Source of the DNA: an uncultured archaeon
GTDB lineage: Archaea; Iainarchaeota; Iainarchaeia; Iainarchaeales; Iainarchaeaceae
DNA: 64,000 nt
NCBI GenBank assembly: GCA_964577555.1
Contig: CAZNZM010000001.1
Span: forward strand, 12,684-76,683
Direction: 5' to 3'
The translations under genes were made by a program, and so were the position numbers. Numbering within the stretch: the stretch's first letter is position 1; each line of letters opens with the position of its first letter. The notes beneath the pieces were generated by a model. The model was not told the DNA's origin. It searched no databases and saw only the letters and a list, made by a program, of their open reading frames with translations. Positions 6,034 to 32,278 of this stretch are shown piece after piece.

Positions 6034-6037
6034 GTAA

Positions 6038-6651: not shown

Positions 6652-7445
6652 ATATTATGACTGAAAATGCAAAAGAAAAAAATGAAGAAAAAACATCTGA
6701 AATAGAGCAAAAAGGCGAAGAACAAACAGCCAAACATACTGAACTTGTTGAAACGGAAAAATACCTTAATACCGGAGCGCATATTGGTACAAAATTCAAA
6801 TCAGGTGAAATGAAACGCTACATTTACAAGATGAGAAAAGACGGCCTTTTTGTTCTTGATGTACAAACAATTGACAACAAACTAAAAGCAGCTTCAAAAA
6901 TGCTATCAGGATATGCGACAGAAAAAATTGCAGTTGTTGCAAGAAGAGCTTATGGACAAACCCCTGCAAAAGTATTTGCGGAAACAGTAGGCGCAACAGC
7001 CTTTACAGGCAGGTTTATTCCTGGAACTTTCACAAATCCGCAGAACACACGATTTTTCGAACCAAAAATAGTTGTCGTTACAGACCCTGAAACCGACAGC
7101 CAAGCTATTGAGGAAGCCACAAGAATAAGAGTGCCAGTAATTGCATTCGTTTCAACAAACAATTCACTAAAAAACATTGACTTGGCAATACCAATAAACA
7201 ACAAAGGCAAAAAAAGCCTGGCGCTGGCATTTTGGATATTAGCAAAAGAAATACTCAAAAAAAAGGGAGACATAAAAAGCGATTCGGAAATGTTGAAAAA
7301 AATCGAGGACTTTGAATACAAAATGAAAGAAGGGGAAGAAGAAGAAAAAAGCCACAAATTTGGCGACAAAAAAAAGCAATTTAACCGGCAAAGGGAAAGA
7401 AAAAACAAGCAACAAAAAAAAACCAGCAAACAGGTAATTAAATAA
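6648..7445 (+). CDS. rps2: Ribosomal protein uS2
   Basis: uS2 core ([25 protein letters not shown]) with a K/E-rich C-terminal extension. There is no rpoK or eno between rpoN and rps2. Confidence 0.93.
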
Positions 7446-10780: not shown

Positions 10781-11074
10781 TTGGAGGTGCGAGTTTTGAA
10801 TGCGATAAAAGTTGAAATAACACCTGAGGAAAAGGCAAGCAGAATTGAGTTAGTAATAAGGTTTTTTTATATGATTCCTTTGTTTATAGTAATGTACATA
10901 TTAGCATTAATTATGCAAATAGCAGTAGTGTTGAATTTTATTACTTCTCTTTTGCTTGGAAAAAGAATTCCAGTGCTTAATAATCTGGTCGTACTATACA
11001 TAAAATATTTGAATAAGTTTTTAACTTACTTGTTCCTTAGCGATGAAAGGCCTGAAATCGTGCCAAAACCTTAA
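10781..11074 (+). CDS. DUF4389-like small membrane protein
   Basis: R.EL..RFFYMIPLFIV........IA....W...L..GKRIP.L..........YLTYLFLSDERPEI resembles the DUF4389 consensus ending in TD-YPPF. 2 TM segments. Confidence 0.45.
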   Translation: MEVRVLNAIKVEITPEEKASRIELVIRFFYMIPLFIVMYILALIMQIAVVLNFITSLLLGKRIPVLNNLVVLYIKYLNKFLTYLFLSDERPEIVPKP

Positions 11075-11090
11075 ATTGAAAATTAATTGT

Positions 11091-11165
11091 TTTTATGGCA
11101 AAGTTTTTTCTTTGTCTTTTTTTAATTTTTGATTTTTTGTTGATTTTTGGCAAAGTGTTTTTGCA
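11091..11165 (+). terminator. Oligo-T tract cluster with a TTTTGGCAAAG direct repeat downstream of the DUF4389 gene
   Basis: Several T5-T8 runs on the coding strand, which is the archaeal intrinsic termination signal. TTGGCAAAG appears twice. Confidence 0.35.
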
Positions 11166-11400
11166 AACTGATTTTTTCAATCGATTTTTGTATAAATTTA
11201 TTAAAAAACTTTTATTTTGAGTTGTTTTTTAAAAATAAAGTTTTATTAAAGCTTTTAATTCTGATAAGCCTATCCTTTTAAACCCTTCCAAATTATAAAT
11301 AATTATATTTTGTTTTGCAACTGGCTATTTGGCTTGTAGCTTGTTGTATTATTAGCCAATGACGATGATTCCCAAAAAGGGATAAGGAGGTGTGTGTAGC

Positions 11401-11766
11401 ATGGCTAATTATGTAAAATTTGTCGTGCCTGAGGAGATCAAGGCAAAGCAAGGGATTATTCTTGAAAAAATTAGGAAGACTGGAAAGATTAAAATAGGCA
11501 GTAATGAAACTACCAAAGCGGCTGAAAGGGGTACTGCAAAGTTGGTGGTTATTGCCGAGGATGTTAATCCGCCTGAAATTGTAATGCATTTGCCTTTGAT
11601 TTGCAAGGAGAAGAATATTCCTTTTTCGTTTGTTTCAACGAAGAAAGGTTTGGGTCAATATGTTGGTATTGATGTCGGAACCGCGGCAATAGCTGTTCTT
11701 GACGAGGGCGATCAAAAGAAAGAGTTTGCGGATCTTGTGAAAAAAATACAGGAATTGTCTAAATGA
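11401..11766 (+). CDS. rpl7ae: Ribosomal protein L7Ae (eL8; K-turn binding)
   Basis: L7Ae/L30e fold signature ([32 protein letters not shown]). AAGGAGGTG ribosome-binding site 8 nt upstream of the ATG. Heads the conserved L7Ae-S28e-L24e-ndk-infB cluster. Confidence 0.9.
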
Positions 11767-11767
11767 G

Positions 11768-11986
11768 GTGGCTTTGATGGAGAAAGGCACGCCGGCTGAA
11801 GTTGTTGAAGTCCTTGGCAGGACAGGGGTTTATGGTGAAATAATTCAGGTCTTATGCAGAATACTTGAAGGACCTGAACAAGGCAGGGTTAAGAGAAGGA
11901 ACATTAAAGGGAATGTGAAAAAGGGAGACGTGATTATTTTGCTTTCAACAGAAAGGGAAGCAAAGGAAATCAAGGCTAATAGGTGA
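11768..11986 (+). CDS. rps28e: Ribosomal protein eS28
   Basis: [28 protein letters not shown]...GRV.RRN.KG.V..GD.I.L..EREA is a near-consensus eS28. Confidence 0.9.
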
Positions 11987-13116: not shown

Positions 13117-14859
13117 ATGATGAGAAAGCCCATAATTACTGTGCTTGGGCATGTGGATGCCGGAAAAACTAAAATGTTGGATGCTATCAGAGGCACGGCT
13201 ATTGCTGAAAAGGAAGCCGGAGGAATAACTCAACATATTGGAGCCACTGAAGTGCCAATAAATGTAATAACCAAAATTGCAAAGCCGATAGCTGAAAAAT
13301 ACAAGTTTAACATAAAAATTCCTGGGTTGCTTTTTATTGACACGCCAGGGCATGAAGCTTTCACCAACCTTCGTAAAAGAGGGGGCAGCATTGCGGATTT
13401 GTCGGTCTTAGTAGTTGATATACATAACGGCTTGCAGGAGCAAACAATAGAAGCAATTGAAATTCTGAAAACTTATAAGTGCCCTTTTGTTGTTGCCGTC
13501 AACAAGATTGATACTATTCAAGGTTGGATTGGAAAAGAGGGTTCTTTTTCGGAATCAATTGAAATGCAGAGGAAAGAAGTTGTTGAAGCTCTTGACGTTA
13601 AAATATATTCTATAGTGGGCCAATTGCATTCAAAGGGTTTTGCAAGCGAACGTTTTGACAGGGTGAAGGATTTTACAAAAGAAATAGCTATATTGCCTAT
13701 TTCGGCAAAGGGAAGAATAGGGATTCAAGAACTTTTGGTTTTTCTTGCGGCTCTTTCGCAACGTTATCTTGAAAAAAAACTTGAAATTCATGAAAAAGGA
13801 AATTGCAAGGGAACAGTACTTGAGGTAAAGGAGGGGAAGGGGCTTGGGACTACGATTGATGTAATACTTTATGAAGGCAGGATAAGTGTTGGAGAAAAAA
13901 TAATTGTAGGCGGAAGGAATGGAATAATAAGAACCAAAATAAGGGCTTTGCTTGAACCTAAACCAGTAGGAGACAAGAGTAATGAGAAGTATAATTGTGT
14001 GAAAGAGGTTCATGCTGCCGCAGGAGTAAAAATTTCTGCGCCAAGTCTTGATGATGCAATTTCCGGTTCTCCTTTGAGGCACGAATCTGAAGAAGCTGAA
14101 AAGGAAATAATGGATGAAATAAAAAAGGTAAAGTTTGAATCTGATGCTGTTGGGCCTATTGTGCGAAGCAATACCCTTGGAAGTCTTGAAGCTCTTGTAA
14201 AGTTGCTTCATGACAAGGGCATCAAAGTGAAAAAAGCTGATATTGGCGAAATTCAAAGGGTTGATGTGCTTGAGGTTCTTCCAGTAAGGGAAAAAGACAA
14301 GTTCAAAGGAGTGATATTTGCTTTTCACACTGGCATATCAGAACAAGCAGAAGTTGAAGCAAAGAAAAGAGGGGTTAAGATATTCAAAAATGATGTGGTG
14401 TATAGGTTGCTTGAAGAGTACGATGCATGGATTTCTGCGGAAAAGGCAAATGAAAAAATGCAGAAGCTTTCAAACATTACTTTGCCAGCAAAGTTTGAAG
14501 TCCTCAGGGGTTTTGTATTCAGAAGAAGCAATCCTGCAATTGTTGGAATAAAAGTTCTTGAAGGAAAACTGCGTAAAGGGGTTGAAGTAATAAATAAAGG
14601 CAAAATAGTTGGCAGGGTACAGTCATTACAAAGCGAGGGAAAAAATATTGAAGAAGCGGTAAAAGGCATGGAAATAGCCGTTTCTATTGAAGGAGGGGTT
14701 GTTGATAAAGGCTTTTCGGAAGGCGATATATTGTATAGTTTTATTCCATTAAGACAATTTTCCGAAATAGAAGACATTGTTGATGTTTTCTCAAAAGAAG
14801 AATTGCAGTTGCTTGGTGAAATCAAGATTATGAGCCAGGAAATTGAAGGGTATACATAA
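13117..14859 (+). CDS. infB: Translation initiation factor aIF5B (IF2 homologue)
   Basis: G domain (VLGHVDAGKT, DTPGHEAF, NKID), beta-barrel domain II and C-terminal domains over 580 aa. Conserved position after ndk. Confidence 0.93.
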   Translation: MMRKPIITVLGHVDAGKTKMLDAIRGTAIAEKEAGGITQHIGATEVPINVITKIAKPIAEKYKFNIKIPGLLFIDTPGHEAFTNLRKRGGSIADLSVLVVDIHNGLQEQTIEAIEILKTYKCPFVVAVNKIDTIQGWIGKEGSFSESIEMQRKEVVEALDVKIYSIVGQLHSKGFASERFDRVKDFTKEIAILPISAKGRIGIQELLVFLAALSQRYLEKKLEIHEKGNCKGTVLEVKEGKGLGTTIDVILYEGRISVGEKIIVGGRNGIIRTKIRALLEPKPVGDKSNEKYNCVKEVHAAAGVKISAPSLDDAISGSPLRHESEEAEKEIMDEIKKVKFESDAVGPIVRSNTLGSLEALVKLLHDKGIKVKKADIGEIQRVDVLEVLPVREKDKFKGVIFAFHTGISEQAEVEAKKRGVKIFKNDVVYRLLEEYDAWISAEKANEKMQKLSNITLPAKFEVLRGFVFRRSNPAIVGIKVLEGKLRKGVEVINKGKIVGRVQSLQSEGKNIEEAVKGMEIAVSIEGGVVDKGFSEGDILYSFIPLRQFSEIEDIVDVFSKEELQLLGEIKIMSQEIEGYT

Positions 14860-14872
14860 AGGAGGTTATGTG

Positions 14873-15268
14873 ATGAAATTAGTTGTTTCAGATCCGAAGT
14901 CAAGACAGGCTTATACAAAGACCGTGGAAAACGCTCAAATGTTTTTTGGCAAGAAAGTTGGCCAGGAGGTTGAGCTTGGCATTATAGGGCTTGAGGGTTA
15001 TTCTGCAAAAATAACCGGCGGCTCTGACAAGCAGGGTTTTCCAATAAAACCTGATTTGGAGGGAGGCGCAAGAAAGAAAGTCCTTGTAACGTTAGATGCA
15101 AAAAAAGGTCAAAAAAAGAAAATTTCAAGGAGGGGCAATCTAGTGACTGATGAGATAGCTCAATTGAACCTTAAAATAGTTAAGTATGGGCCTAAACCGA
15201 TTGAAGAGATTTTGGGCGGAGCCAATAAAGAGGTTTCAAAAAAGAAAGAAAGTGCAAAACCAAGTTGA
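14873..15268 (+). CDS. rps6e: Ribosomal protein eS6
   Basis: Start after a GGAGG ribosome-binding site (the ORF is listed from 14843). MKLVVSDP..Q......E........G.E..G..LEGY..KITGGSDKQGFPIK is a canonical eS6. Confidence 0.85.
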   Translation: MKLVVSDPKSRQAYTKTVENAQMFFGKKVGQEVELGIIGLEGYSAKITGGSDKQGFPIKPDLEGGARKKVLVTLDAKKGQKKKISRRGNLVTDEIAQLNLKIVKYGPKPIEEILGGANKEVSKKKESAKPS

Positions 15269-15282
15269 ATGGAGTTGAATAA

Positions 15283-16482
15283 ATGAAAAAACAAGGACAG
15301 CAAGCCGAAGTAAATATTGGAATGATAGGGCATGTTGACCATGGAAAGACTTCTTTGGTCAAGGCGTTGACTGGGAAGTGGACAGATACCCATAGTGAAG
15401 AAGTAAAAAAAGGAATTTCTATTAGACTTGGTTATGCTGATGCCACATTTTACAAGTGTGATAAAGCGGTTGGGCCTGAAGGGTACAATTCAACAGGCAA
15501 TTGTGATGGAATGGGAAAGGCAGTACCACTTAGAAGAGTATCATTCGTGGATGCTCCTGGGCATGAAACCCTCATGGCTACAATGCTTTCTGGTGCGGCT
15601 CTCATGCATGGCGCTGTGCTTGTGGTTGCCGCCAATGAAAAATGCCCACAACCAAGAACTGAAGAGCATTTAATGGCTCTCAAAATAGGCGGCATAAAAA
15701 ATATAGTTGTTGCACAAAACAAAATAGACTTGGTGGATGAAAGCAGGGCAAAAGAAAGTTTTAATGAAATAAGGGCTTTTTTGAAACAATATGGTTATGA
15801 TGATGCTCCAATAATTCCAATTTCTGCAAATCTTAACGTGAATATTGATTTGTTGATTGAAGCTATTGAAAAACACATTCCCACTCCAAAGCTTGACAAG
15901 GAAAAAAATTTCAAAATGTTTGTCGCAAGGAGTTTTGATGTCAACAAGCCAGGCACAAAACCGGAAGACATTAAAGGCGGTGTCATAGGTGGTTCAATAA
16001 TTTGCGGAAAACTCAAAGTAGGCGATGAAATAGAAATTTCTCCCGGCATTGGAAATGGGCCAATAAAAACAAAAGTTAATAGTCTTGGCGTGGATAATGG
16101 ATTTATAGAAGAAGCAACTCCCGGCGGTTTGATTGCAATAGGAACTGATTTGGATCCTTTTTACACTAAAAATGATGAAATGCGGGGCCAAGTTGCCGGC
16201 AAGCCAGGAACTTTGCCAAAACCTGTTTCAAATATCAAACTTGAAGTGCATGAAATAGAAAGGTTGATTGAAAAAAAAGGCGAAGGTTTCAAAGTGAATG
16301 ATTATGTCGTGCTTGCAATTGGAACAGCTACAATCATAGGGCAAATTTCAAGACAGGCTGGCAAAAACGAATTTGAATTTGTTCTTCGCAACCCGGCGAT
16401 TGTAGAAAAAGGGGAAAAAGTAGCAATAAGCAAAAGAGAACAGAGTGGTTGGAGATTAAGAGGATACGGGATTTGCAAATAA
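15283..16482 (+). CDS. eif2g: Translation initiation factor 2 gamma subunit (aIF2gamma)
   Basis: GTPase motifs GHVDHGKT, DAPGHE and NKID. Zinc-ribbon cysteines (CDKAV...C). EF-Tu-like domains II and III. Confidence 0.93.
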   Translation: MKKQGQQAEVNIGMIGHVDHGKTSLVKALTGKWTDTHSEEVKKGISIRLGYADATFYKCDKAVGPEGYNSTGNCDGMGKAVPLRRVSFVDAPGHETLMATMLSGAALMHGAVLVVAANEKCPQPRTEEHLMALKIGGIKNIVVAQNKIDLVDESRAKESFNEIRAFLKQYGYDDAPIIPISANLNVNIDLLIEAIEKHIPTPKLDKEKNFKMFVARSFDVNKPGTKPEDIKGGVIGGSIICGKLKVGDEIEISPGIGNGPIKTKVNSLGVDNGFIEEATPGGLIAIGTDLDPFYTKNDEMRGQVAGKPGTLPKPVSNIKLEVHEIERLIEKKGEGFKVNDYVVLAIGTATIIGQISRQAGKNEFEFVLRNPAIVEKGEKVAISKREQSGWRLRGYGICK

Positions 16483-19906: not shown

Positions 19907-20005
19907 TAATTTGGTTTTGAGCGGAAAACAAAAAAGAGAGCATTAAAAAAAATTAATTTTGGATTGTTATTTATATATTAATTTATTCGGATTATATGGT
20001 TTTTT

Positions 20006-20997: not shown

Positions 20998-22347
20998 TTA
21001 ATTTTTTCTTGAAAAAAACAGGTGAATTGGAAAAGATGCAAGGCTTAATATTAACCCGTAAAAAATCAAAGGCAAAGAAATACCAAACAAAACCAAGGTT
21101 TCAGTCATTTGAAGTAACATTATCAAACAAGAAATAAAGCCAAACATGGAAAGCAATGGTATCTTTCCTATGTTGAAAGGCATTCTGAAATGTTCTTTTG
21201 AAGTAACATGTTTAAACCTGCAAGCTATTGCTGAAAGATTAACCAATGCAAACATCGTGAATATGAAATAATTTGAAAGCAAAGCTATTTTCTTTATGTC
21301 ATCAATAAAAAGAAGGAAAATTGAAACTGACATTATGAATAATATTGCAATGTAAGGAGAATTGGTTTTTGTTTCCAGTGCTTGAAAATTTTCCGGCAAT
21401 TCGTGTTGCTTTGATAAACCATAAAGCATTCTGCTGGCTACAAGAACAAGGACAAGAACAGTATTTGATGTAGCAAATATTCCTATTAGGCTTAACAATA
21501 CTCCGGCATTTGCTCCAAAAGATTGTTCAGCAACCGCTGCAAGTGGATTGGCTTTTTTGGAAAGCTCTTGCCATGGCATTATATTTACCACTGAAATTGC
21601 CGCTAGACAGTAAAGCAAAGTAGAGAATGCAAGGGAAAAAAGAACTGCTTTTGGAATGTTTCTGGAAGCGTTTTTTGTTTCTTCTGAAATATTTGCTATT
21701 TGTTCAAACCCTACAAATGCAAAGAAAATGAGCGAAGCGGCGGACAATATTGATGTAATGAAATCAGTGTTTGGCGGAATTTCCAGCAAATCCGCTTTTC
21801 CGATATAACCTAAACCGAAAAATATTATTAGGATTATTCCTAAAGATTCTATGAGTGTGGCAAAAAAATTGAATTTTGCCGATTCTTTTATGCCAAGGTA
21901 ATTTATAAAACTGACTAGCATAATAAGCGCTATTGCAGAGCCAATTATTGGAAATCTGAAAAGGCCGTTAAGGTATCCTGCAAAGCCAAGTGCAACAACC
22001 GAGATAGAAAAAATGTTAGCCAATATTGCCGAGTAAGAAGTAAAAAAAGCCAAAAAATTTGAACCAAAAGCGTGTTTTACGAATACGAATTCAGCAGCAG
22101 TTTTTGGAAAAACTGATGAAAGTTCGGCATAGCTCATGGCAGTAAAACCTGCAATTATTGCGGCTATCACAAATGATAACCATGTAGCATTGCCTGCTAT
22201 TCCTGATGCTTCGCCTATAAGAGCATAAATTCCAGCTCCTATTATTACGCCAACTCCGTAAAACATTGCATCAAAAAATGAGAGGGATTTTTTCAAATGC
22301 ACCGGATTTTTGAATTTTAAAGCCATTAAATCACACGAATTTTTCAT
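20998..22347 (-). CDS. APC-superfamily amino-acid permease (12 TM); likely start at the Met at 22323
   Basis: GVGVIIGAGIYALIGEA... followed by 12 hydrophobic segments. Typical of the APC/AAT family. Confidence 0.82.
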   Translation of the reverse strand: MKNSCDLMALKFKNPVHLKKSLSFFDAMFYGVGVIIGAGIYALIGEASGIAGNATWLSFVIAAIIAGFTAMSYAELSSVFPKTAAEFVFVKHAFGSNFLAFFTSYSAILANIFSISVVALGFAGYLNGLFRFPIIGSAIALIMLVSFINYLGIKESAKFNFFATLIESLGIILIIFFGLGYIGKADLLEIPPNTDFITSILSAASLIFFAFVGFEQIANISEETKNASRNIPKAVLFSLAFSTLLYCLAAISVVNIMPWQELSKKANPLAAVAEQSFGANAGVLLSLIGIFATSNTVLVLVLVASRMLYGLSKQHELPENFQALETKTNSPYIAILFIMSVSIFLLFIDDIKKIALLSNYFIFTMFALVNLSAIACRFKHVTSKEHFRMPFNIGKIPLLSMFGFISCLIMLLQMTETLVLFGISLPLIFYGLILSLASFPIHLFFSRKN

Positions 22348-22804
22348 TTATATAAAAATAAAGCGGTATTGAAAGTATAGCTAAAAAAAGAATAAAATTG
22401 AATGGATAAGGCAAAGTGTTTATTGACTTGTTTTGGTAAATATAAGCTGAAACAACTATTATTGCAAAAATAAATAACTCAAAAAAAACTATTTTAAGGG
22501 ACGATTTTCTTTTTGCAACTTTTAATTTTCTGAAGTTGCTGGTGTAATTGTAGAAATGAAGTGCCGCGAATATTATTGCTCCGGTGATAATAAAATTGAA
22601 AGGCGGGTCAATCTTGTTAGTGGCAGGATCTATGTAAACCAAAAAAGCGAAAAGAACCGCCATTGCAAGAATAAATTCCAAGATTATAAGGGCAGTGTAT
22701 TGTAAATCTTTTAGCTTGGACAATTTTTGTATTGCCTTTTCAATAATCAAATTAGTAGCATCCCACCCAATTAAAATGTCAAATTTTTTTCCCATAATAA
22801 TCAA
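22331..22804 (-). CDS. Hypothetical 4-TM membrane protein overlapping the permease start
   Basis: 157-aa ORF. Hydrophobic. No recognisable family. Confidence 0.35.
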   Translation of the reverse strand: MIIMGKKFDILIGWDATNLIIEKAIQKLSKLKDLQYTALIILEFILAMAVLFAFLVYIDPATNKIDPPFNFIITGAIIFAALHFYNYTSNFRKLKVAKRKSSLKIVFFELFIFAIIVVSAYIYQNKSINTLPYPFNFILFLAILSIPLYFYINEKFV

Positions 22805-23400
22805 TTTAGTTTATACTGGCATATATTTATTTTGGTGACAATTTTTGGGAATTTTTTATTAATAAAAAAAGTAAAAGCAAAATTAATGTAAACAATTAAA
22901 AACAATAAAATTGCATAAAAACGGCTCACAAAAAACAACATAGACAACGCCTAAAAAAAAACCAAAAAAACTTGGCTCGCCAAAAAAAACGCCAAACAAA
23001 ACAAAAGACTGCTCAAAATAAAAAAAATACAAAAAAATGGCCAAACACAAAAAACTATAAAATCAAAAAAAAACGGCTCACAAAACAAACAACAAAAAAA
23101 ATAAATTCCAAATAAAAAACAAATCACTCTACAAAAAAAATGACAAAAAAACGGCTCGGAAAAAACAATTCAAAAAAAAATGACAAAAAAAACTTGACTC
23201 GCCAAAAAAAACAAACAAAAAAAACAAATTCAAATTTTAGAACAAAAAAAACCTGTCAAAAAAATAACAGCCAAAACAAAGACAAAAAAAATTAAAAATC
23301 ACAAAATAAAAAAAACAAATTGTCAAAAAAACAAGTAAGCCCTAAACAAAATCAAGCATACAAAAAGGCGAAAAAATTAAGGATGAATTGTCTTAAAAAA
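22805..23400 (+). repeat. 596-bp A-rich low-complexity spacer with a repeated aaaaaCGGCTCRC / CTTGGCTCGCC-aaaaaaaacaaaca unit
   Basis: No ORF. At least 6 copies of the GGCTC(A/G)(C/G) island in a poly-A/ACAAACA context. Two tandem units of about 45 bp lie at 23137-23240. Related spacers occur at 27640, 45704 and 63855. Confidence 0.7.
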
Positions 23401-23401
23401 A

Positions 23402-23857
23402 TTATTTTTGGTTGCTTGATTCTATGCCGAGTTGTTCGTCAAGTTCTTGCGCTACTTTTTTCATTCTTGAAAATATTCTGTCAATGTCATCCTCTAATTC
23501 CTCAATTATCCTATAAACGGATTTTGATCTGGATTGATAATATCTTCCATTCTTTACTATAAGGCCAGAGCGAATAAGATTATTCAAATGGTTAACAACC
23601 GCGCCCCTGCTCATGCCAATTTTCTGCACTATTTCGGCTGAGGTAATAGGCCTTCCTTCTTCAGTGGCTTTGAAAATTTCCCTGAAAATTGCTGCTGCAG
23701 TCCTTTCGCGGTCTATTGGTTCAAAAAACCCGAGAGATTGACAAATCCATTCAAATTCAGCTACAGGGTCGTTAGAAAAAGGGCGTTCAACACGTTTCAC
23801 TACAATTCTGAAAGATTCTCGCCTCAAAGTCATAAAAATGCAAATAAGCAAAAACAT
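23402..23857 (-). CDS. Winged-HTH transcriptional regulator divergent from grpE (putative heat-shock operon regulator); likely start at the Met at 23833
   Basis: Predicted wHTH (ITSAEIVQKIGMSRGAVVNHLNNLIRSGLIVKNGRYY) plus a C-terminal acidic helix. Shares a palindrome-containing intergenic region with grpE. Confidence 0.55.
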   Translation of the reverse strand: MFLLICIFMTLRRESFRIVVKRVERPFSNDPVAEFEWICQSLGFFEPIDRERTAAAIFREIFKATEEGRPITSAEIVQKIGMSRGAVVNHLNNLIRSGLIVKNGRYYQSRSKSVYRIIEELEDDIDRIFSRMKKVAQELDEQLGIESSNQK

Positions 23858-23878
23858 TTAAAAAAGTTTTGATTAAAA

Positions 23879-23914
23879 ATTTTAGTTATTAACTAAAAAA
23901 TTTAGTTAATTTTT
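23879..23914. promoter_or_regulatory. Candidate operator: imperfect palindrome TTTAGTTATTAACTAAA plus a second TTTAGTTAAT copy 20 bp downstream, in the regulator/grpE divergent promoter region
   Basis: Inverted repeat read directly from the sequence. Two copies spaced by about two helical turns, immediately upstream of the grpE start (23920). Confidence 0.4.
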
Positions 23915-23919
23915 AAGGA

Positions 23920-24459
23920 TTGGTGGTTGAATTGGAAAATAAAAACAATGGGCGCAAAGAAAATAAAATTAATGAAGAAAAACAGGAAAACCCGTTGAAT
24001 GAACGCGATAAAGAATTGGAAGAACTTAGGCAAAAAAGCAATGAATACAAGGAAACCTTGCAAAGGTTGCAAGCAGACTTTGAAAATTTCAGAAAAAGGC
24101 TTGACAAAGAAAGGGATGATTATAGAAAATTAGCTGGTGCAAAAGTAATAAGCGATTTCCTGCCACTGTATGACACTCTTAACGAAGCGGTCAAACAGGC
24201 TGAAAAATCCAAAAATGAAGAGTTGAAATCGGGAATGCAAAAAGTACTTGCCCAGTTTTTGCAAATATTGCGTTCAAACGGAGTTGAAGAAATAAACACT
24301 GAAGGAAAAAAATTTGATTTGGAAATGCACGAATGCATAATGACTGGAAATGACAAGGACAAAGAGGACGGAATAGTTTTGGAAGAATTCCAAAAAGGAT
24401 TTACAATTAACGGCTTTGTATTAAGGCCTGCAAAAGTGAAAATCAACAAAAAAGGGTGA
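23920..24459 (+). CDS. grpE: Nucleotide exchange factor GrpE
   Basis: Coiled-coil N-terminus (RLQADFENFRKR) and C-terminal beta domain (GF..NG.VLRPAKV). Confidence 0.9.
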   Translation: MVVELENKNNGRKENKINEEKQENPLNERDKELEELRQKSNEYKETLQRLQADFENFRKRLDKERDDYRKLAGAKVISDFLPLYDTLNEAVKQAEKSKNEELKSGMQKVLAQFLQILRSNGVEEINTEGKKFDLEMHECIMTGNDKDKEDGIVLEEFQKGFTINGFVLRPAKVKINKKG

Positions 24460-24567
24460 AGAAATGAAAAAAATAGAATGCAAAAAAGAAACAAAGGAAG
24501 AAAAGGAAACATATCAACACATTCCCAAAGCAAGGGAAAAAATAAATTTTTTTGACGTTTATGAGGG

Positions 24568-26424
24568 GTGGTGAAAATGACTAAAATAATAGGCATAGAC
24601 CTTGGAACATCAAACTCGGCAGCGGCTTTTTTGGAGGCCGGAAAGCCAAGAATAATACCAAGTGCTGAGGGAAACACAATGTACGGAAAAGCTTTCCCAA
24701 GCGTTGTGGCGTTTACAAAAGACGGCCAGGTTCTTGTCGGAGAGCCGGCAAGAAGGCAGGCGATATCAAACCCAGAAATGACTTTTACCGGTTTCAAAAG
24801 AAAAATGGGAACAAATTACAAATATAAAGTCGGGGAAAAAGAATATACGCCTCAACAATTATCAGCATACGTGCTTCAAAAAATCAAAAAAGACGCTGAA
24901 GCATTTTTGGGGGAAAAAATAGAAAAAGCGGTTATCACGGTTCCGGCTTATTTTGATGACAACCAAAGACAAGCCACGAAAGATGCTGGAAAAATCGCGG
25001 GGTTGGAAGTGATAAGGATAATAAACGAGCCAACAGCTGCATCTTTAGCTTATGGTCTTGACAAAATGAAAAAGAACTTCAAAATACTGGTATTTGACTT
25101 GGGCGGAGGAACCCTTGACGTTACTGTAATGGATTATGAGGAAGGAGTATTTGAAGTAAAAAGTACTTCTGGAGACACGCAACTTGGCGGCAGAGACATG
25201 GATGAAGCAATTATAAATTACATTGTAAAAGACTTCAAAGCAAAAGAAGGCATAGACCTTACAAAAGACGCAACGGCAATGCAACGTGTCAGAGAAGCGG
25301 CTGAAAAAGCCAAAATAGAGCTTTCAAGCGTCCTTGAAACCGAAATAAATTTGCCATACATTACAGCCACAAACGAAGGACCTAAACACTTAATCATGAA
25401 AATGAACAGAGCAAAACTCGAAGAGCTTGTTGACCCTATTGTGAAAAGATGCTTGAAGCCTGTGCAACAAGCGCTTGCGGACGCAAAAATGACTCCTTCT
25501 GATATAGACAAAATAATTCTTGTTGGCGGGCCGACAAGAATGCCAATAATCCAAAAGTTCATTGAAAAAGAAATAGGCACCAAAGTTGAAAGGGGAATTG
25601 ATCCGATGGAATGCGTTGCGGCTGGAGCCGCAATACAAGGTGGGGTCCTGGCTGGAGAAATAAAAGACGTATTGCTGTTGGATGTTACCCCGTTGAGTTT
25701 GGGCATTGAAACTCTTGGCGGAGTTTTCACAAAACTTATTGAAAGAAATACAACAATCCCGACCAAAAAAAGCCAAATTTTTTCAACGGCATCAGACAAC
25801 CAACCAGCAGTTGATATACATGTTTTGCAAGGCGAAAGGCCTCTTGCAAAAGACAACAAAGAGTTGGGAAGATTCCAATTAGTTGGAATACCGCCTGCAC
25901 CAAGAGGAGTGCCACAAATAGAAGTCACTTTTGACATAGATGCAAATGGTATAGTCAATGTCAGTGCAAAAGACCTTGGCACCGGCAAGGAACAAAGCAT
26001 AAAAATAATAGCTTCCCAAAAGCTATCAGATGAAGAAATAAAAAGAATGCAAAAAGAAGCAGAAGAAAACTTTGAAGCTGACAGGAAGAAAATGGAAGAA
26101 ATAGAAACCATAAATAACGCGGATGCCGCGACATACAGCACTAATAAAATGCTCAACGATTTAAAGGACAAAATATCCGAATCAACTGCAAAGAAAATAA
26201 GGGAAAAAAACGAGTCTCTCAAAGGCTTGTTGAAAGAAGAGAAAAAAGACATAAGCAAAATCAAATCTGCATTAGAAGAATTGAACAAGGTTGTTCAAGA
26301 AGCTTCAACAGAGCTCTACACCAAAGGAAAACAAAGTCAAGATAATTCGGAACAGGAAAAAAAGGATAAAGACAAAAAAGACGAAAAGGTGGTAGACGCG
26401 GATTTCACCGAAGAAGAAAAATAA
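24568..26424 (+). CDS. dnaK: Chaperone DnaK (Hsp70)
   Basis: [19 protein letters not shown] and the full NBD/SBD/lid architecture. Bacterial-type Hsp70. Confidence 0.97.
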
Positions 26425-26445
26425 AATTGAATGGCAGAGGCAAAA

Positions 26446-26466
26446 CTAACTTTTATAACAAGTTAG
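26446..26466 (+). other. Intercistronic stem-loop between dnaK and dnaJ (CTAACTT-N7-AAGTTAG)
   Basis: 7-bp perfect inverted repeat in the 57-bp dnaK-dnaJ spacer. Confidence 0.4.
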
Positions 26467-26481
26467 CAAAAGGGTTGTTAC

Positions 26482-27639
26482 ATGACAAAAGACTATTATG
26501 AAATTCTTGGAGTGCCGAGAAATGCCTCTGCCGAAGAAATAAGAAAAGCTTACAAAAGGCTTGCAAAAAAATACCACCCTGACATAAACAAGGAAAAAGG
26601 CGCTGAAGAAAAATTCAAGGAAATACAACACGCATATTCAATACTGAGTGATGAACAAAAACGTAGAAACTACGACCAATTTGGGGAACAATCTGAAAAG
26701 TTTTCGGGTTTCGGAGGGTTCAGCGCAGGAGGCTTTGAAAGCAATGAATTCAACTTTGAGGATATTTTTGAATCAATGGGCTTTGGCTCTGGATTTGCTG
26801 ATTTTTTCGGAGAAAATATTTTTGGCGGAAGGCAAAGCAGAAAAAGCAGGGGAACAGACATATTAATAAGACTAAACATATCATTTGAGGAAGCCGCGTT
26901 TGGAACAAAAAAAGACATAGAAATAGAAAGAATAGAAGAATGCGAATTATGTAAAGGGAGTGGGGCAAAACCAGGCACAAAAATTTTAACATGCAAAATA
27001 TGCAACGGCACCGGTTTTGAAAGAACAGTGCGTAGAACATTTATCGGAACCATATCAACCCAAACTACTTGCAGAACATGCAAAGGAACTGGAACTTCAT
27101 ACGAAGAAACTTGCCATAATTGCCATGGCGATGGAAAAGTAAATAAACGGAAAAAAATCACGGTTGAAATTCCTGCAGGTGTTGATACAGGCACAAAACT
27201 CAGAATTTCAGGCCAAGGCAATGCAGGAAGCCAAGGAATGAAAAGAGGAGACCTTATTATACTTATTTACGTTGAACCGCACGAAATATTCAAGCGCGAC
27301 GAACAAGACATTTACATGGAAGCCCCTATTTCCTTCAGCGAAGCAGCGCTTGGCGGAGAAATTGAAGTGCCAACATTAAAAGGAAAAGCAAAAATCAAGA
27401 TTCCGCCTGGAACGCAAAGCGGAACAATTTTCAAAATGCATGGTAAAGGAATAAAAGTTTTAAACAGAAACGAATACGGCGACCAGTTTGTCAAAGTGAT
27501 TGTTAGAACCCCAGAAAAACTTTCAAAGCGCCAAAGAGAATTGTTTGAACAGCTCGCTAAAGAAGAAGAAATTGCAAAGTCAAGAAAAGGATTTTTTGAC
27601 AGATTCAAAGACATTTTCAACGAGAAAAAAGACAAATAA
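26482..27639 (+). CDS. dnaJ: Co-chaperone DnaJ (type I: J domain, G/F region, 4x CxxCxGxG zinc finger, C-terminal domain)
   Basis: DYYEILGV...HPD J domain, G/F-rich linker and four CxxCxGxG repeats. Confidence 0.95.
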
Positions 27640-27910
27640 AAGCTTGCTGAAAAAAAAGCTGCAATGGCCAAAAAAATAATCCGTTTCTATTGCCAAAAAA
27701 AAATCGACTGGTAAAAACAAAAAAATTTCAAATATAAAAAAACAACAAAAAAATAAAACAAAAAATGACTAAAAAAATAAATGAAAAAACAAAGCGAACT
27801 AAAAGCAAACAAAAAACCGCCAAAAAATTTTTTGCAGGTTGAAGAAGCAAAATTGTGTTTAAACAAAAAAACTAGTTTTTTAAGGCGATTAGCGTTTTAA
27901 GTAAAAATTA
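27640..27910 (+). repeat. A-rich low-complexity spacer related to 22805-23400 (GGCCAAAAAAA / TTGCCAAAAAAAAA / CCGCCAAAAAA islands)
   Basis: No ORF. Same compositional style and GC-island motifs. Forms the right border of the Hsp70 cassette. Confidence 0.6.
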
Positions 27911-27952
27911 TTGTTTTTAAGCTTTTTTAATGGTGAATTATTAAAGTTAATT

Positions 27953-30379
27953 ATGAGAAATCAAAATTTACAAGAAAGCAAAAACGAAAAAAACGAATTT
28001 CTATCCATAGAAAAAAAGTGGCAAGCTTATTGGGAAGCGAATAAAATATACAAATTTGACATAAACAAGCCAGACCCTGTTTTTGCGATTGATACGCCTC
28101 CGCCAACCGTTTCAGGCAGAATGCATTTAGGGCATGCATTTTCATATGCGCAAGCAGATTTCATTGCAAGGTATAAAAGAATGTGCGGTTTCAACGTCTT
28201 TTACCCTTTTGGCTTGGATGATAACGGCCTTGCCACTGAAAGGCTTGTTGAAAAAAGCAGGAATATAAGAGCAAAAGATTTTACAAGAGAAAAATTCATA
28301 GAAATTTGTTTGGAAGAAACAAAAAAGTACGAAGACTTGATGATTTCGGATTTCAAAAGCCTTGGTTTGAGCGTTGATTGGGATTTGATTTACAGGACAA
28401 TTGACAATTTGGCAAGAAGAATCAGCCAAAGAAGCTTTATTGAGCTTTACAAAAAAGGCAGGGTTTATAGAAAAGAGGCTCCTTCAATGTGGTGCCCTGA
28501 ATGTGAAACCGCTGTTGCGCAAGCGGAACTTGAAGACATAGAACTTGACAGCACTTTTAATGATATAGTGTTCAAGCTTGAATCTGGCGAAGACTTGATA
28601 ATTGCAACAACCAGACCTGAACTGCTTTCAAGTTGTGTGGCGATTTTTGTAAATCCGGAAGATGAAAGGGCAAAAAAATTGAAAGGCAGAAAAGCCAAAG
28701 TGCCTCTCTTTGATTATTGGGTTCCAATACTAGAAGACAAAAGAGTTGATATGAAAAAAGGCACCGGAATTGTAATGTGCTGCACTTTCGGAGACCAAAC
28801 TGACATGGAATGGTATTTCGCGTACAACCTTCCATTGAGAATAAGTTTTACTTTTGATGGAAAAATGACTGCTTTGGCAAAAGAATTTGCCGGCAAAAGC
28901 ATTAAAGACGCTAGAAAAGAAATAATAAATTCTCTCAAAGCAAAAGGATTGTTGGTTTCACAAAAACCTATACGCCATGCAGTAAAGGTTCATGAAAGAT
29001 GCAAAACAGAAATCGAAATAATGAATACAAAGCAATGGTTCTTAAAATACCTTGACATTAAAAACGAGTTTTTAAAAATGGGAGATCAACTCAATTGGTA
29101 TCCTTACCACATGAAAGTCAGGTACGAGAATTGGATTAAAGGTCTTCAATGGGATTGGAGTCTTTCAAGACAAAGATTTTTCGGAGTGCCTTTTCCAGTA
29201 TGGTATTGCGCAAAATGCGGAGAAACAATAATAGCTGACGAAAGCCAATTGCCTGTTGACCCGCTACAAGACAAACCGCCTTCAAGATGCTTAAGATGCA
29301 AATCAAACGAATACGTTCCTGAAAAGGACGTCCTTGACACGTGGGCTACTTCTTCTCTTACACCACAAATAAACGCCAAGTGGAGAGAAGACCCAGAACT
29401 TTACCGAAAAATATTTCCTATGTCTTTAAGGCCTCAAGCCCATGACATAATAACCTTATGGGCTTTCAACACCATAGTGAAAGCATATTTCCATGCTGGC
29501 AAACTGCCTTGGAATGATATAATGATTTCAGGGCACGCGCTGGACCAAAAAGGCAGAAAAATGTCCAAAAGTCTTGGAAACGTGATTAATCCTGTTGAAA
29601 TGATTGAAAAATACTCGGCCGACATATTGAGATATTGGGCAGGCTCCGGAACACTTGGAGACGACCTGCCATTCCAAGAAAAGGAATTTGTCGCTGGAAA
29701 AAAATTTTTGACAAAAATACGCAATGCAGGAAAATTTGTTTCACAAAATACAAGCGAAGCCAAACTTGAAGATTTTGAAAAAGAAAGAAAAAATCTAAGG
29801 GTTTTGGATAAATGGATTTTAAGCAGGTTTGAAAAAGTAAAAAAAGAAGTGACAGATGCGCTTGAAGTGTACGAGTTTTCCAAAGCACTCTCTGTTTTGA
29901 GAAATTTTTTTTGGCTTGAATTTGCGGATTATTATATAGAAGAAGTAAAACACAGAGTTTATGGAGAAAATAAAAACAAATCATGCAAAATAGTGCTTGC
30001 AAAAATTTTCACGGAATTGCTCAAAATGCTGGCTCCTTTTATTCCTCACACTGCTGAAGAAGTTTTCCAATCAAATTTCAAGGCATTTGCAAAAGAAAAA
30101 TCAATTCATCTTGAACAATGGCCAAACCACGAACCGGAATTAGTTGATTCGGAATCTGAAGCGGCTGGCGAATTGGCAAAAGAAATAATTGGCGAAATCA
30201 GAAAATACAAATCAGAAAAAAACATGGCAATGAACGCGGAAATCCATGAATTCACGCTTGAAAAAAAACCGGATGAAAAATTGTTCAAGCTAATAGAAGA
30301 AGACATAATGGCTGCAATGAATGTCAAAAAAATAATGGTTTTAAATAAAAGTACTGAAAACAAGCCTAAACAAAATTAA
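27953..30379 (+). CDS. valS: Valyl-tRNA synthetase (class I, Ile/Val/Leu subfamily)
   Basis: PPPTVSGRMHLGHAF (HIGH), editing-domain TTRPEL and GTG..M, and KMSKSLGN. The ValRS call rests on the TTRPE and GTG-V motifs. Start taken at the ATG at 27953 (the ORF is listed from a TTG at 27911). Confidence 0.78.
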   Translation: MRNQNLQESKNEKNEFLSIEKKWQAYWEANKIYKFDINKPDPVFAIDTPPPTVSGRMHLGHAFSYAQADFIARYKRMCGFNVFYPFGLDDNGLATERLVEKSRNIRAKDFTREKFIEICLEETKKYEDLMISDFKSLGLSVDWDLIYRTIDNLARRISQRSFIELYKKGRVYRKEAPSMWCPECETAVAQAELEDIELDSTFNDIVFKLESGEDLIIATTRPELLSSCVAIFVNPEDERAKKLKGRKAKVPLFDYWVPILEDKRVDMKKGTGIVMCCTFGDQTDMEWYFAYNLPLRISFTFDGKMTALAKEFAGKSIKDARKEIINSLKAKGLLVSQKPIRHAVKVHERCKTEIEIMNTKQWFLKYLDIKNEFLKMGDQLNWYPYHMKVRYENWIKGLQWDWSLSRQRFFGVPFPVWYCAKCGETIIADESQLPVDPLQDKPPSRCLRCKSNEYVPEKDVLDTWATSSLTPQINAKWREDPELYRKIFPMSLRPQAHDIITLWAFNTIVKAYFHAGKLPWNDIMISGHALDQKGRKMSKSLGNVINPVEMIEKYSADILRYWAGSGTLGDDLPFQEKEFVAGKKFLTKIRNAGKFVSQNTSEAKLEDFEKERKNLRVLDKWILSRFEKVKKEVTDALEVYEFSKALSVLRNFFWLEFADYYIEEVKHRVYGENKNKSCKIVLAKIFTELLKMLAPFIPHTAEEVFQSNFKAFAKEKSIHLEQWPNHEPELVDSESEAAGELAKEIIGEIRKYKSEKNMAMNAEIHEFTLEKKPDEKLFKLIEEDIMAAMNVKKIMVLNKSTENKPKQN

Positions 30380-30533
30380 ATAAAAAAAAGATCGCGGAAA
30401 AGCCCAAAAACAGAGCTTCATAAAAACTATTTTTGTGAAAAAAATAGAGATTGACATTATTCTAACAATTTACACAGACAATTTACAATTTATTAATTTT
30501 ATATATAAATAACAATAACATTACTAACATATT

Positions 30534-31016
30534 ATGCCTATACCAACTCCAGGACACAAACTTATAAAACCTAAACCTAACCCAAAAACAAGGCAACAAA
30601 TGTTAAGAATTTTGTTTGGGGAAGTAATGGACCTTATACCTAGACGACAGACTCCATATGGAGATTACGCACATTTAAGGTGGGATCTTAATAAACTTAT
30701 TTTTTTAATGAATGAACAATTAGCAAAAAGAGGCACCAAACCGTCCGAATTATCACCAAGACAATTGGCTGACCTAGTTGGCGAAATTCTGGATGGCTTT
30801 AATCGTCTTGTTAAGCCTAGACGTAGAGTAAAAATTCTGACTATTACAGAAAATATTTTTAAGATAAGAAAAGCGATGGAAGTAATAAAGCGCAGCCGAA
30901 GAACGCCACAAGAATTGTCTGAGGAGCAGCATAAAGCATTGTCTAAATTAAAAAATGAACTGCGTGAAGAACAAAAAAAATTTCTTGATATTATTGGAAG
31001 TTGGAATAAGTCTTAA
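30534..31016 (+). CDS. Hypothetical basic protein with atypical Arg-codon usage
   Basis: 160-aa ORF. Uses CGT/CGA/CGC Arg codons that are rare elsewhere in the window. Flanked by short direct repeats. No family recognised. Confidence 0.35.
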   Translation: MPIPTPGHKLIKPKPNPKTRQQMLRILFGEVMDLIPRRQTPYGDYAHLRWDLNKLIFLMNEQLAKRGTKPSELSPRQLADLVGEILDGFNRLVKPRRRVKILTITENIFKIRKAMEVIKRSRRTPQELSEEQHKALSKLKNELREEQKKFLDIIGSWNKS

Positions 31017-31131
31017 CAAGCTTTTATACTTTTATACTTTATTTGTCTGAGTGGAATTTAAATAATAAAATTCAAATGCTGCAACACAACAACCCATTCA
31101 ATTTAAATTATTTCAAAATAATAAATTATAG

Positions 31132-31662
31132 ATGAAAAAACTAGCCAATATTCCGGTTTTGATTGGAATTGTAATAATAGCGTTTTTTCTAATGAATTAT
31201 TTTGGAATTTTACAATTTGGCAATTCGGCTCTTGAAAAAATAGACAAAAAATACGGGATAGGAGTTGGACGGCTTGCTCCTGCAACAGAATCGGAAATTT
31301 TGTCTTATAAAAAAGAAATAAAATCGGTTTTTACGCTGACGTCTGAAGAAAAAGAATTGCAAAAAATAAAGCTTTTGCTTGCTGACATGCAATTGTCTCT
31401 CTTATTTTTTGCAGAACACAGGAAAAACTTTAACCCTATTGATGTGCCTTGTGGAACTTATACTGAATATGGCAAGGCAAAAACCGAACTTGAAAAAGCC
31501 ATTAATTATGCTTCTGCAATAAAAAATAGCAGTGCAAAAATAAAGCAACAAAAAATAGGGGTTTTGGATTCAGCATATCTTGAAGACACTGTTTCCCAAG
31601 CGATTTCAGACCTTGAAAAAAGATACGAATCACTTAAAAAAATTTGCAACACAAAAGCATGA
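31132..31662 (+). CDS. Hypothetical protein with an N-terminal membrane anchor
   Basis: 176-aa ORF with one N-terminal TM then a helical domain. Stop lies 4 nt before the bud32 start. Confidence 0.4.
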   Translation: MKKLANIPVLIGIVIIAFFLMNYFGILQFGNSALEKIDKKYGIGVGRLAPATESEILSYKKEIKSVFTLTSEEKELQKIKLLLADMQLSLLFFAEHRKNFNPIDVPCGTYTEYGKAKTELEKAINYASAIKNSSAKIKQQKIGVLDSAYLEDTVSQAISDLEKRYESLKKICNTKA

Positions 31663-31666
31663 TTCT

Positions 31667-32278
31667 ATGAACGTAATAAAAGAAGGAGCAGAAGCCAAAA
31701 TTTTTAAAATCGATTTTTTTGGTTTCAAAGCAGTGAATAAATTGCGAGTAAGCAAAGAGTACAGGGAAAAAACGCTTGATTGCAAAATTCTTTTGGAACG
31801 GCTTCGCACAGAATGTTCATTGATTCATAAGGCTAAAAAAGCTGGGGTTAGAACGCCTTTGATTTTTGATATAAACAAAAAAAAACTTTCAATTACAATG
31901 GAATTTATCAAAGGAAAAACAATGAAAGAAATGCTTTTGGAAAATCCGGAAAATTCTGGAATTTTTTGTGCAGAAGCTGGGAAAATTATTTCAAAACTGC
32001 ATTGTTTTGGCATTATACATGGCGATTTGACTACAAGCAATTTTATATGTTCAAGCCATGGGCTCGTTCTTTCGGATTTTGGCTTGGGTTATTTTTCAAA
32101 AAAAACGGAAGACATGGCTGCTGATTTGGTTTGCTTCAAAAAAAGTTTTATGTCAACCCATTATAATTTGGTTGAAAATTGGTTTTTGATTGAAAAAGAG
32201 TATGAAAAATTTTTTCCGATGGCAAAAGAGGTTTTTAACAGAATGAAAAATATTGAAGCAAGGGCAAGATACTACTAA
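31667..32278 (+). CDS. bud32: Bud32/PRPK atypical kinase (KEOPS subunit)
   Basis: IKEGAEAKIF, catalytic HGDLTTSNF, DFGL and truncated RIO-like kinase length. Start taken at the MNVIKEG Met. Confidence 0.78.
   Translation: MNVIKEGAEAKIFKIDFFGFKAVNKLRVSKEYREKTLDCKILLERLRTECSLIHKAKKAGVRTPLIFDINKKKLSITMEFIKGKTMKEMLLENPENSGIFCAEAGKIISKLHCFGIIHGDLTTSNFICSSHGLVLSDFGLGYFSKKTEDMAADLVCFKKSFMSTHYNLVENWFLIEKEYEKFFPMAKEVFNRMKNIEARARYY

Follow-up and report, generated by a model that had tools for sequence, protein, structure and literature searches.

The 64-kb window (the whole stretch of 64,000 nucleotides that was analysed) contains a real and statistically robust interspersed repeat family, consisting of long A-rich arrays in which a short GC-containing island recurs between runs of A. 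Comparison of related genomes shows that these arrays are minisatellite-like and that slippage and duplication drive their evolution. We tentatively propose that they are lineage-specific, hypervariable and strand-polar oligo(dA).oligo(dT) arrays, minisatellite-like in their evolution, which may act as one-way terminator stacks, and we give this reading as a whole a probability of about 0.45. The family is new in detail, yet it is built on known kinds of sequence, namely minisatellite-like intergenic repeats and the archaeal oligo-T terminator sequence.

DPANN archaea have very small genomes and, to our knowledge, almost nothing is known about their non-coding DNA. The arrays are an unexpected form of such DNA: stretches of low-complexity repeat as long as 700 bp stay at fixed sites from one species to another, while nothing of their sequence is retained.

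Location and composition of the arrays

The window encodes PolD DP1 and DP2, Orc1/Cdc6, SepF, archaeal ribosomal proteins and aIF2, and the nearest homologues of its DnaJ and HTH proteins are labelled Diapherotrites, ainarchaeum or AR10. This gene content and these labels identify the host as a DPANN archaeon, Iainarchaeota/Diapherotrites-like. The arrays, their repeated 26-mer and the neighbouring genes are as follows.

10796-11074, + strand: DUF4389 gene, with its own T/G-rich array directly past the stop
11075-11200, + strand T/G-rich: small array of inverse polarity past the DUF4389 stop; 9 runs of T5+, islands GGCAAAG
22331-22804, - strand: 157-aa gene (157-aa/permease operon), whose conserved promoter is the left bound of array 1
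22861-23375, + strand: array 1, core of the flagged spacer 22805-23400; A/C-rich, 29 runs of A5+ (T5+ on the - strand), islands CGGCTCAC (twice), CTTGGCTCGCC, CGGCTCGG and CTTGACTCGCC
23066-23091, + strand: 26-mer AAAAAAAACGGCTCACAAAACAAACA, copy 1, identical to copy 2
23402-23857, - strand: winged-helix (HTH) regulator gene; its stop adjoins array 1, and T runs then follow in the sense direction
26482-27639, + strand: dnaJ; 189 nt without a T5+ run past the stop
27640-27850, + strand: array 2, from the dnaJ stop to the conserved LeuRS promoter; 14 runs of A5+, first + strand T6 at 27828
42308-45703, + strand: PolD large subunit DP2; first sense-strand T5+ run 549 nt beyond the stop
45704-46021, + strand: array 3, between the convergent PolD DP2 (+) and 255-aa (-) genes; 17 runs of A5+, no T5+
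46022-46789, - strand: 255-aa gene, with array 3 past its stop, read in sense as T runs
47224-47292, + strand: mini A-rich array (69 bp) in the divergent SepF/Cdc6 gap; island CGGCTTG
47416-48618: cdc6, 1.4 to 24 kb distant from the large arrays
63855-64000, + strand: array 4, past the FKBP gene (+); leaves the window and reaches at least 64056, at least 10 runs of A5+
63946-63971, + strand: 26-mer AAAAAAAACGGCTCACAAAACAAACA, copy 2, identical to copy 1 and 41 kb away from it

A 100-nt sliding window reaches at least 65-70% A on the + strand at exactly four sites, and these are the four loci named in an earlier note on this DNA, which had described them correctly as long non-coding A-rich tracts (about 22861-23375, 27640-27850, 45704-46021 and 63855 to at least 64056). 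The same procedure gives one T-rich site, at about 11090-11204. With the inverse array at 11075-11200 and the mini-array at 47224-47292, six array loci are counted in the 64-kb window. The figure of above 75% A first put forward was too high, as the A content is 54-66% across the intervals originally delimited (100-nt maximum 70-73). The pooled cores of the four large arrays contain 63% A, 16% C, 13% T and 8% G. Their local excess of C over G is the reverse of the G>C skew found on the remaining + strand, and their A runs are broken by C and T, not by G. The arrays occupy gaps between the end of a gene and the next promoter; array 1 is flanked on both sides by minus-strand genes. The extreme compactness attributed to the genome is not uniform, since other spacers of 100-400 bp are present.

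The repeat unit

Alignment of the arrays on GGCT gives a repeat unit composed of an optional TTGAC, A7-9, a YGGCTYRC island, A5-8 and CAAA or, base by base, (TTGAC), A7-9, C or CTT, GGCT, C or T, A or G, C, A5-8, C and AAA. About 40 nt of this unit can be aligned among arrays 1, 3 and 4. The 26-mer AAAAAAAACGGCTCACAAAACAAACA, whose identity between 23066 and 63946 had already been noticed, is part of that stretch. The same unit is found at loci 18-41 kb apart. Islands had been described as occurring every 30-50 bp; the spacing of GGCT islands lies mostly between 36 and 105 bp, with a mode of 48-51 bp. A tandem unit of about 45 bp, also reported earlier, is present at 23042-23127 (1.9 copies, 79% matches with Tandem Repeats Finder); the same program detects other periods of 16 (6.2 copies), 26 and 29, all with degenerate units, and the periodogram of the arrays displays only weak peaks at about 16 and 32 bp. 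Dyad symmetry is present in some of the islands (TTGGC-TC-GCCAA, CGGC-TC-GCCG and GTTGG-C-CCAAC) and absent from most.

The arrays were compared with 500 dinucleotide-preserving shuffles of the four large loci. GGCT occurs 9 times against 1.5 expected, a count that 0 of the 500 shuffles reach. GGCTYRC has 6 occurrences where 0.1 would be expected, 12-mers that contain 5 or more non-A bases are shared between loci 19 times against 0.4, and A7+ runs number 42 against 31.6, again with 0/500 shuffles in each case. The enrichment of motif and islands over shuffled sequence that the earlier note had proposed to verify is thus borne out. The GGCTCRC-type islands that it described are equally genuine: of the 11 GGCTCRC matches in the window, 6 fall inside the approximately 1.2 kb of arrays, which make up some 2% of the sequence, and all 6 are on the + strand. 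The reverse-complement word AGCC was not enriched in the four arrays relative to the 500 shuffles, which indicates that the motif itself is polar. In the array of the relative L048, described below, GGCT is found 9 times against 0.9 expected (0/500 shuffles).

Array sequences in independent assemblies

Low-complexity DNA is open to suspicion as an assembly artefact, and several assemblies do break in or at the arrays (at 23071, 45887, about 45661 and 64056), as fits repeats that confuse assemblers. The source samples are SRR12686701 and the JGI samples 3300037501, 3300043177 and 3300043267. A Logan contig (SRR12686701) matches positions 23071-32057 of the window at 100% identity, a stretch that takes in the whole of array 2 and a portion of array 1. 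Two JGI samples and the Logan assembly give array 3 with 100% identity, and no variation is seen across these three samples of the window's own strain. Array 4 was recovered in another JGI sample and extends at least 56 bp beyond the end of the window; past it, every contig retrieved stops at about 64056. Related genomes from other samples carry homologous arrays. Independent assemblers and samples thus reproduce the same sequence exactly, and we consider an artefact practically excluded; this answers the suspicion of assembly artefacts raised earlier. The arrays are nonetheless a practical cause of assembly breaks in metagenome-assembled genomes of this type, since contigs of several assemblies end there.

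Comparison with related genomes

The relative L048 (a JGI contig) is syntenic with the window, with 87-90% nucleotide identity in genes and differences at 37% of dnaJ fourfold-degenerate sites. Arrays 1 and 2 are located at the same sites in L048, with the same polarity relative to genes. Array 1 measures about 600 bp in the window and 732 bp in L048; for array 2 the lengths are 270 and 228 bp. The composition of the L048 array 1 (62% A, 14% C, 8.5% G) is close to that of the pooled window arrays, and the L048 island types CTTGGCTCAC, CTCGGCTCAC, CGGCTTGC, TGGCTCGCC and CCGGCTCGCC match those of the window. No colinear alignment of the array interiors was obtained between the two genomes, and the L048 array 2 carries CCGGCTCGCC though it cannot be aligned with array 2 of the window. 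Conservation is found at the edges of array 1, at 22805-22855 (the promoter of the 157-aa gene) and at 23376-23401 (the HTH stop and the first T run). At 37% neutral divergence any given 7-mer would survive with a probability of about 4%, so that the motif copies must have been regenerated by duplication or kept by selection. Island variants are lineage-specific, GGCTTGC being common in L048, and such lineage-specific variant spectra are a signature of concerted evolution. In another relative, L054 (88% identical), the start of array 3 is likewise A-rich.

L048 and a second strain of the same relative, L049, are close enough for individual changes to be read, with differences at 1.3% of fourfold sites. 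Over 200 bp of array 1 the two strains are separated by four changes in A-run length, about 7 substitutions and a 90-bp indel flanked by the direct repeat AAAAAACGCCAAGCCAAAAAAA. These differences directly show slippage and unequal exchange. Array substitutions are as frequent as synonymous ones or more so, which is what DNA free of constraint would show. Both features by which minisatellites (VNTRs) are recognized, head-to-tail units and length polymorphism between close genomes (here L048 and L049), are present. The arrays grow, shrink and are homogenised by slippage in homopolymers, by tandem duplication, by deletions between direct repeats and, to some extent, by exchange from one locus to another, and their sites have persisted in two species-level lineages while the array sequence turned over completely.

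More distant relatives have no arrays at the corresponding positions. At the array 1 site, a relative with 77% identity in the HTH protein possesses an ordinary spacer of 181 bp, and at the array 3 site a relative whose 255-aa protein is 59% identical has an equally ordinary one of 108 bp. In a family-level relative with 68% DnaJ identity, dnaJ and LeuRS are separated by a 253-aa gene, at the position of array 2, and the position of array 1 is taken by a PemK/RHH toxin-antitoxin pair, a GNAT gene and other DNA. Beyond these loci, the full motif was not found in the other DPANN and outgroup loci fetched (752 kb searched, including the window and close relatives). The exact pattern AAACGGCTCRC N0-1 AAAACAAAC had 9 matches in a metagenome collection, none in an A-rich context and therefore due to chance, and the 7 matches of the exact pattern AAAAACGGCTCACAAAA in a viral collection were all chance matches. 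In a search of species-representative genomes via DnaJ, the best relative had 51% identity, and the A-rich windows there were Lys-rich coding segments.

Locus occupancy, which the earlier note had suggested comparing between strains, therefore distinguishes close relatives, where arrays 1 and 2 (L048) and the start of array 3 (L054) are present, from more distant ones, where arrays are lacking. Taken with the shuffles, the spacers of the relatives uphold its view of a genuine, interspersed and lineage-specific family. The family is young and, among the genomes compared, confined to one narrow clade.

Orientation of the arrays and transcription

The earlier note stated that the A-rich strand is always the + strand. 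This is the case for all four large arrays, an agreement that has a probability of 0.125 by chance, and it does not extend to the small array at 11075-11200, which is inverted. The sole candidate for a replication origin is the gap that precedes cdc6, at about 47.3 kb. An origin there would place array 4 on the other replichore from arrays 1-3, with which it shares its polarity, so that the available data lend no support to a replication-linked bias.

Transcription direction gives a clearer pattern. The minus strand contains 29, 14, 17 and at least 10 T5+ runs in arrays 1, 2, 3 and 4, respectively, and the + strand only 0-2. Operon-final genes in the window normally have 1-2 T5+ runs at most 100 nt past the stop. 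The HTH (-), 255-aa (-) and DUF4389 (+) genes each have 8-9 sense T5+ runs within 150 nt past the stop, and dnaJ, DP2 and FKBP have none over the same distance; the FKBP gene is followed by more than 200 nt without a T5+ run. Three loci (those of dnaJ, DP2 and FKBP) follow + strand genes, and not two as initially counted. It was on the strength of such loci that simple termination had been dismissed. The objection holds for array 2, for the DP2 side of array 3 and for array 4, but the dismissal was too quick for two large arrays and for the array at 11075-11200.

Oligo-U is a known termination signal in Archaea. In Methanococcus, termination efficiency and aCPSF1 binding both increase with the number of U4 tracts (PMC8716108). 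In RNA, the T/G-rich strand of each array would be a stack of 10-29 oligo-U tracts. An RNA polymerase moving in the minus direction should be halted by the array, and one moving in the plus direction should meet no T run inside it. From the stacking of tracts and the rise of efficiency with tract number, the arrays are predicted to be very strong stops, and we infer that their most plausible effect is on transcription, as very strong one-directional stops. Several observations run counter to this. No minus-strand gene feeds into array 2; the arrays present their A-rich side to dnaJ, DP2 and FKBP and so are no terminators for these genes; 1-2 T runs suffice elsewhere, and 300-700 bp looks excessive for termination alone. 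In addition, T-run termination does not need the GGCTYRC island and leaves the bias towards A/C over A/G unexplained. The recurrence of one unit at loci 18-41 kb apart is not accounted for by slippage at each locus, and the array substitution rate, equal to the synonymous one or higher, is that of unconstrained DNA. If the arrays are indeed polar terminator stacks, they would show a compact archaeal genome insulating its transcription units and blocking antisense transcription. If they are products of slippage only, they would mark weak repair. Either way, they are hypervariable loci that could be used for strain typing in the lineage.

Alternative explanations

A serious rival to the terminator stacks, which we hold to be unlikely but deserving of real attention, is a functionless mutational origin, in which uncorrected slippage and unequal recombination would have let a homopolymer-rich spacer run away in a repair-poor, reduced genome, with the motif as a passenger. 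Indels and A-run length changes dominate between near-identical strains, substitutions reach or exceed the synonymous rate, sequence conservation between species is zero, motif variants are lineage-specific as under concerted evolution, and slightly more distant relatives lack the arrays; all this is as a by-product of mutation would have it. The main weakness of this explanation is the persistence of the arrays at fixed sites, sizes and polarity: over 37% synonymous divergence the same three sites have kept them, similar in size and unchanged in polarity, and this in a genome that is compact. Compact genomes normally delete useless DNA. The occurrence of the same unit at distant loci also counts against it, as does the breaking of A runs by C and T, the expected transition product being G. 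Selection could instead bear on unit number and orientation. As a speculation that we consider improbable, the arrays would be polar chromosomal elements of this DPANN clade, in which the number and orientation of YGGCTYRC/A-run units are selected and not their sequence. Such elements would serve as one-way barriers or anchors (insulators of transcription or replication, or else centromere-like or loop-anchoring sites to which a lineage-specific protein binds), approximately regularly spaced round the replication gene cluster, and they would form a class previously undescribed. A narrower proposal of the same sort, which we find quite improbable, takes the arrays for iteron-like groups of binding sites (YGGCTYRC or TTGGC/GCCAA half-sites) for a lineage-specific protein involved in chromosome organisation, segregation (centromere-like) or replication near the Cdc6/PolD cluster. 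The motif has been kept despite full turnover of the surrounding sequence, some islands are dyadic, the arrays are at most 25 kb from orc1/cdc6 with the mini-array in the gap upstream of cdc6, and arrays 2, 3 and 4 are spaced by about 18.1 kb, twice over, although statistics on this spacing rest on three points. However, the majority of islands are not dyads, the operator-like palindrome TTAGTTATTAACTAA of the adjacent HTH regulator is unrelated to them, neither an ORB-like consensus nor a G-string is present, loci numbering four or more are too many for each to be an origin, and no candidate for the binding protein was found.

None of the four identities suggested in the earlier note, protein-binding arrays included, gained positive support, and the remaining families of explanation on its list fare less well. 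A role as functional RNA is in our view very unlikely, whether as A/C-rich, unstructured 3' UTRs of dnaJ, DP2 and FKBP acting in mRNA decay or factor-dependent termination, or as small non-coding RNAs. It is true that three + strand genes enter arrays directly, with no T-run terminator, and that the A-rich strand is C-rich, G-poor and unstructured (z = -0.8 in RNA folding against shuffles). Folding of the T-rich strand is somewhat stronger than that of shuffles (z = -3.3), an effect that apparently comes from a small number of short dyad islands. Yet there is no Rfam match at the gathering score across the whole window, and none at E-values up to 1 in 22700-23500; both sequence and structure are unconserved between relatives, no promoter-like unit was defined, and array 1 sits between two minus-strand genes. 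More doubtful still is an origin from a small mobile element (MITE, REP or BOX-like), as its relics or clusters, or from hotspots where repeated insertion and recombination left scars. Copies of the unit are scattered, the two identical 26-mers lying 41 kb from each other, the make-up is modular and mosaic, and the family-level relative has accessory genes (PemK/RHH toxin-antitoxin, GNAT and the 253-aa gene) at the positions of arrays 1 and 2. Against this, no terminal inverted repeats, target-site duplications or transposase were seen, the sites are syntenically fixed in two lineages, and the exact-pattern scans of the metagenome and viral collections gave chance matches only. For a hotspot, moreover, gene content should differ at the array sites, and it is identical there between the window and L048, whose sole gene indel is elsewhere; only the more distant relatives differ, at two sites.

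A number of specific identities were considered separately. No tRNA was found, and no C or D boxes were seen by eye in the units of about 50 bp, which speaks against C/D-box sRNAs. A Lys/Asn-rich protein-coding reading was rejected, as either strand offers only unconserved ORFs of 51-59 codons, about the length expected by chance at this composition. With respect to REP/BIME, MITE or BOX elements, no inverted-repeat pair frames any array, and the A-rich strand is unfolded. The units are too degenerate and irregularly spaced for a CRISPR array. An archaeal oriC was discarded because the large arrays are 1.4 to 24 kb from cdc6, with only the 69-bp mini-array in the cdc6 gap, and the islands are without ORB dyad and G-string. 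Helical phasing of A-tracts (DNA curvature) does not apply either, the periodogram peaks being at about 16 and 32 bp and not at 10.5 bp. In a scan for bacterial-type promoters and hairpin terminators, matches were no commoner than in shuffles. Finally, the arrays do not look like decoy sites for the neighbouring HTH regulator, whose likely operator, the palindrome TTAGTTATTAACTAA, is unrelated to the islands.

Likeness to known systems

The arrays resemble archaeal U-tract terminators (aCPSF1/FttA) in that sense T4-5+ runs follow right past the stops of the HTH, 255-aa and DUF4389 genes, and stronger termination with more tracts has been published (PMC8716108). They depart from them in scale, with 10-29 tracts that extend over 200-700 bp where terminators have 1-3 in about 30-100 nt, in the recurrence of the GGCTYRC island, and in the three + strand genes that face their A-rich, non-terminating side. 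With prokaryotic minisatellites or VNTRs and cryptically simple sequence they share tandem degenerate units, homopolymer and repeat-bounded indels between strains, complete turnover between species and concerted evolution of variants. In contrast to these, the units are very degenerate, are embedded in homopolymer runs and are dispersed over at least four loci, in one polarity and at positions conserved across species.

Bacterial REP/BIME, pneumococcal BOX and Correia/ERIC-type elements are likewise short, intergenic and often located just past stops, and like the arrays they are mosaic or modular, variable in internal unit number and lineage-restricted. The arrays, however, have no consistent stem-loop or terminal inverted repeat, are low-complexity and A-rich rather than GC-rich and palindromic, and belong to an archaeal host, with no associated transposase seen. 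Archaeal origins, in which an AT-rich unwinding element and ORB repeats are found by orc1/cdc6, are similar in being AT-rich, in their short repeated GC-containing elements and in their PolD/orc1/cdc6 neighbourhood; they differ in that there are at least four array loci, that no large array adjoins cdc6 and that neither ORB dyad nor G-string is present. Eukaryotic intergenic poly(dA:dT) of Plasmodium and yeast also consists of long homopolymer tracts between genes, strand-asymmetric and fast-evolving, for which a role in nucleosome exclusion is proposed (PMC4194402), whereas the arrays described here are few, discrete and provided with a common GC motif.

Genomic context of the arrays

The block made up of a winged-helix (HTH) regulator gene (23402-23857, minus strand), grpE, dnaK and dnaJ (23920-27639) is bordered by arrays 1 and 2, two of the A-rich non-coding repeat arrays; in relatives without arrays the block is found at the same position. 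The divergent HTH/grpE gap (23858-23919 in the window; 9913-10000 in L048, a contig from a species-level relative) contains a perfect palindrome, TTAGTTAtTAACTAA, and an additional half-site, TTAGTTAA. Both are unchanged between the window and L048 despite 37% divergence at synonymous sites. The palindrome is probably the operator through which the regulator would act on grpE-dnaK-dnaJ. The next-best matches of DnaJ, just behind its archaeal homologues, come from bacteria, namely Tepidibacter and further members of the Firmicutes, and their identities are close to 50%. The dnaK operons of Archaea are of bacterial origin, and these matches fit such an origin.

In L037, a contig from a family-level relative whose DnaJ is 68% identical, non-array content (3930-7332 and 11184-11945) occurs where the window has arrays. 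Genes for a GNAT acetyltransferase and a toxin-antitoxin pair (PemK/RHH) occupy the position of array 1, together with some 930 bp of further DNA, and a gene for a 253-aa protein, between dnaJ and the LeuRS gene, occupies that of array 2. Gene content also differs between close relatives: L048 carries a 584-aa gene (14175-15929) between Sua5 and TsaD/Kae1, for which no Pfam match was found, whereas the same interval in the window is only a 99-bp spacer (19907-20005), a difference of gene presence or absence.

Several assemblies made independently of one another (Logan, JGI 3300043177 and JGI 3300037501) have contigs that end in or beside arrays, at window positions 23071, 45887, about 45661 and about 64056. 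The array repeats fragment metagenome-assembled genomes of the host lineage. Arrays 2, 3 and 4 are centred at 27745, 45862 and about 63955, so that successive centres lie about 18.1 kb apart both times, three points being too few to judge this regularity.

Replication genes and candidate origin

A replication gene cluster occupies 39261-50927 of the window, with the following members:

within 39261-50927: NOG1-type GTPase
40780-42324: PolD DP1
42308-45703: PolD DP2
minus strand: 255-aa protein
minus strand: SepF
47416-48618: Orc1/Cdc6
48825-50927, minus strand: Hel308-like helicase

A candidate replication origin is the divergent SepF/Cdc6 gap (256 bp, 47160-47415). In it lie a mini A-rich array and an inverted repeat, GGAATTggtttAATTCC, after which comes ACA.

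After the NOG1-type GTPase gene, A8-CGT-A8-CGGG-T7-GAACGGGA-T6 (40363-40407) forms a palindromic A-run/T-run element that has the appearance of a bidirectional terminator in compact form. Similar to this element is AAAAAATTTTTT (27822-27833). An isolated exact TTGGCTCAC (40449-40457, minus strand) lies upstream of the DP1 operon and directly downstream of a TATA-like TTTATATAA. This occurrence could be due to chance, about 0.5 such 9-mers being expected in the window.

A giant repetitive ORF

An ORF of 2439 aa with an NPCBM_assoc match spans 51014-58333. It contains a 72-bp tandem repeat (53146-53314) and blocks of about 37 nt recurring at distances of 315-650 bp, and its predicted product is probably a repetitive surface protein.
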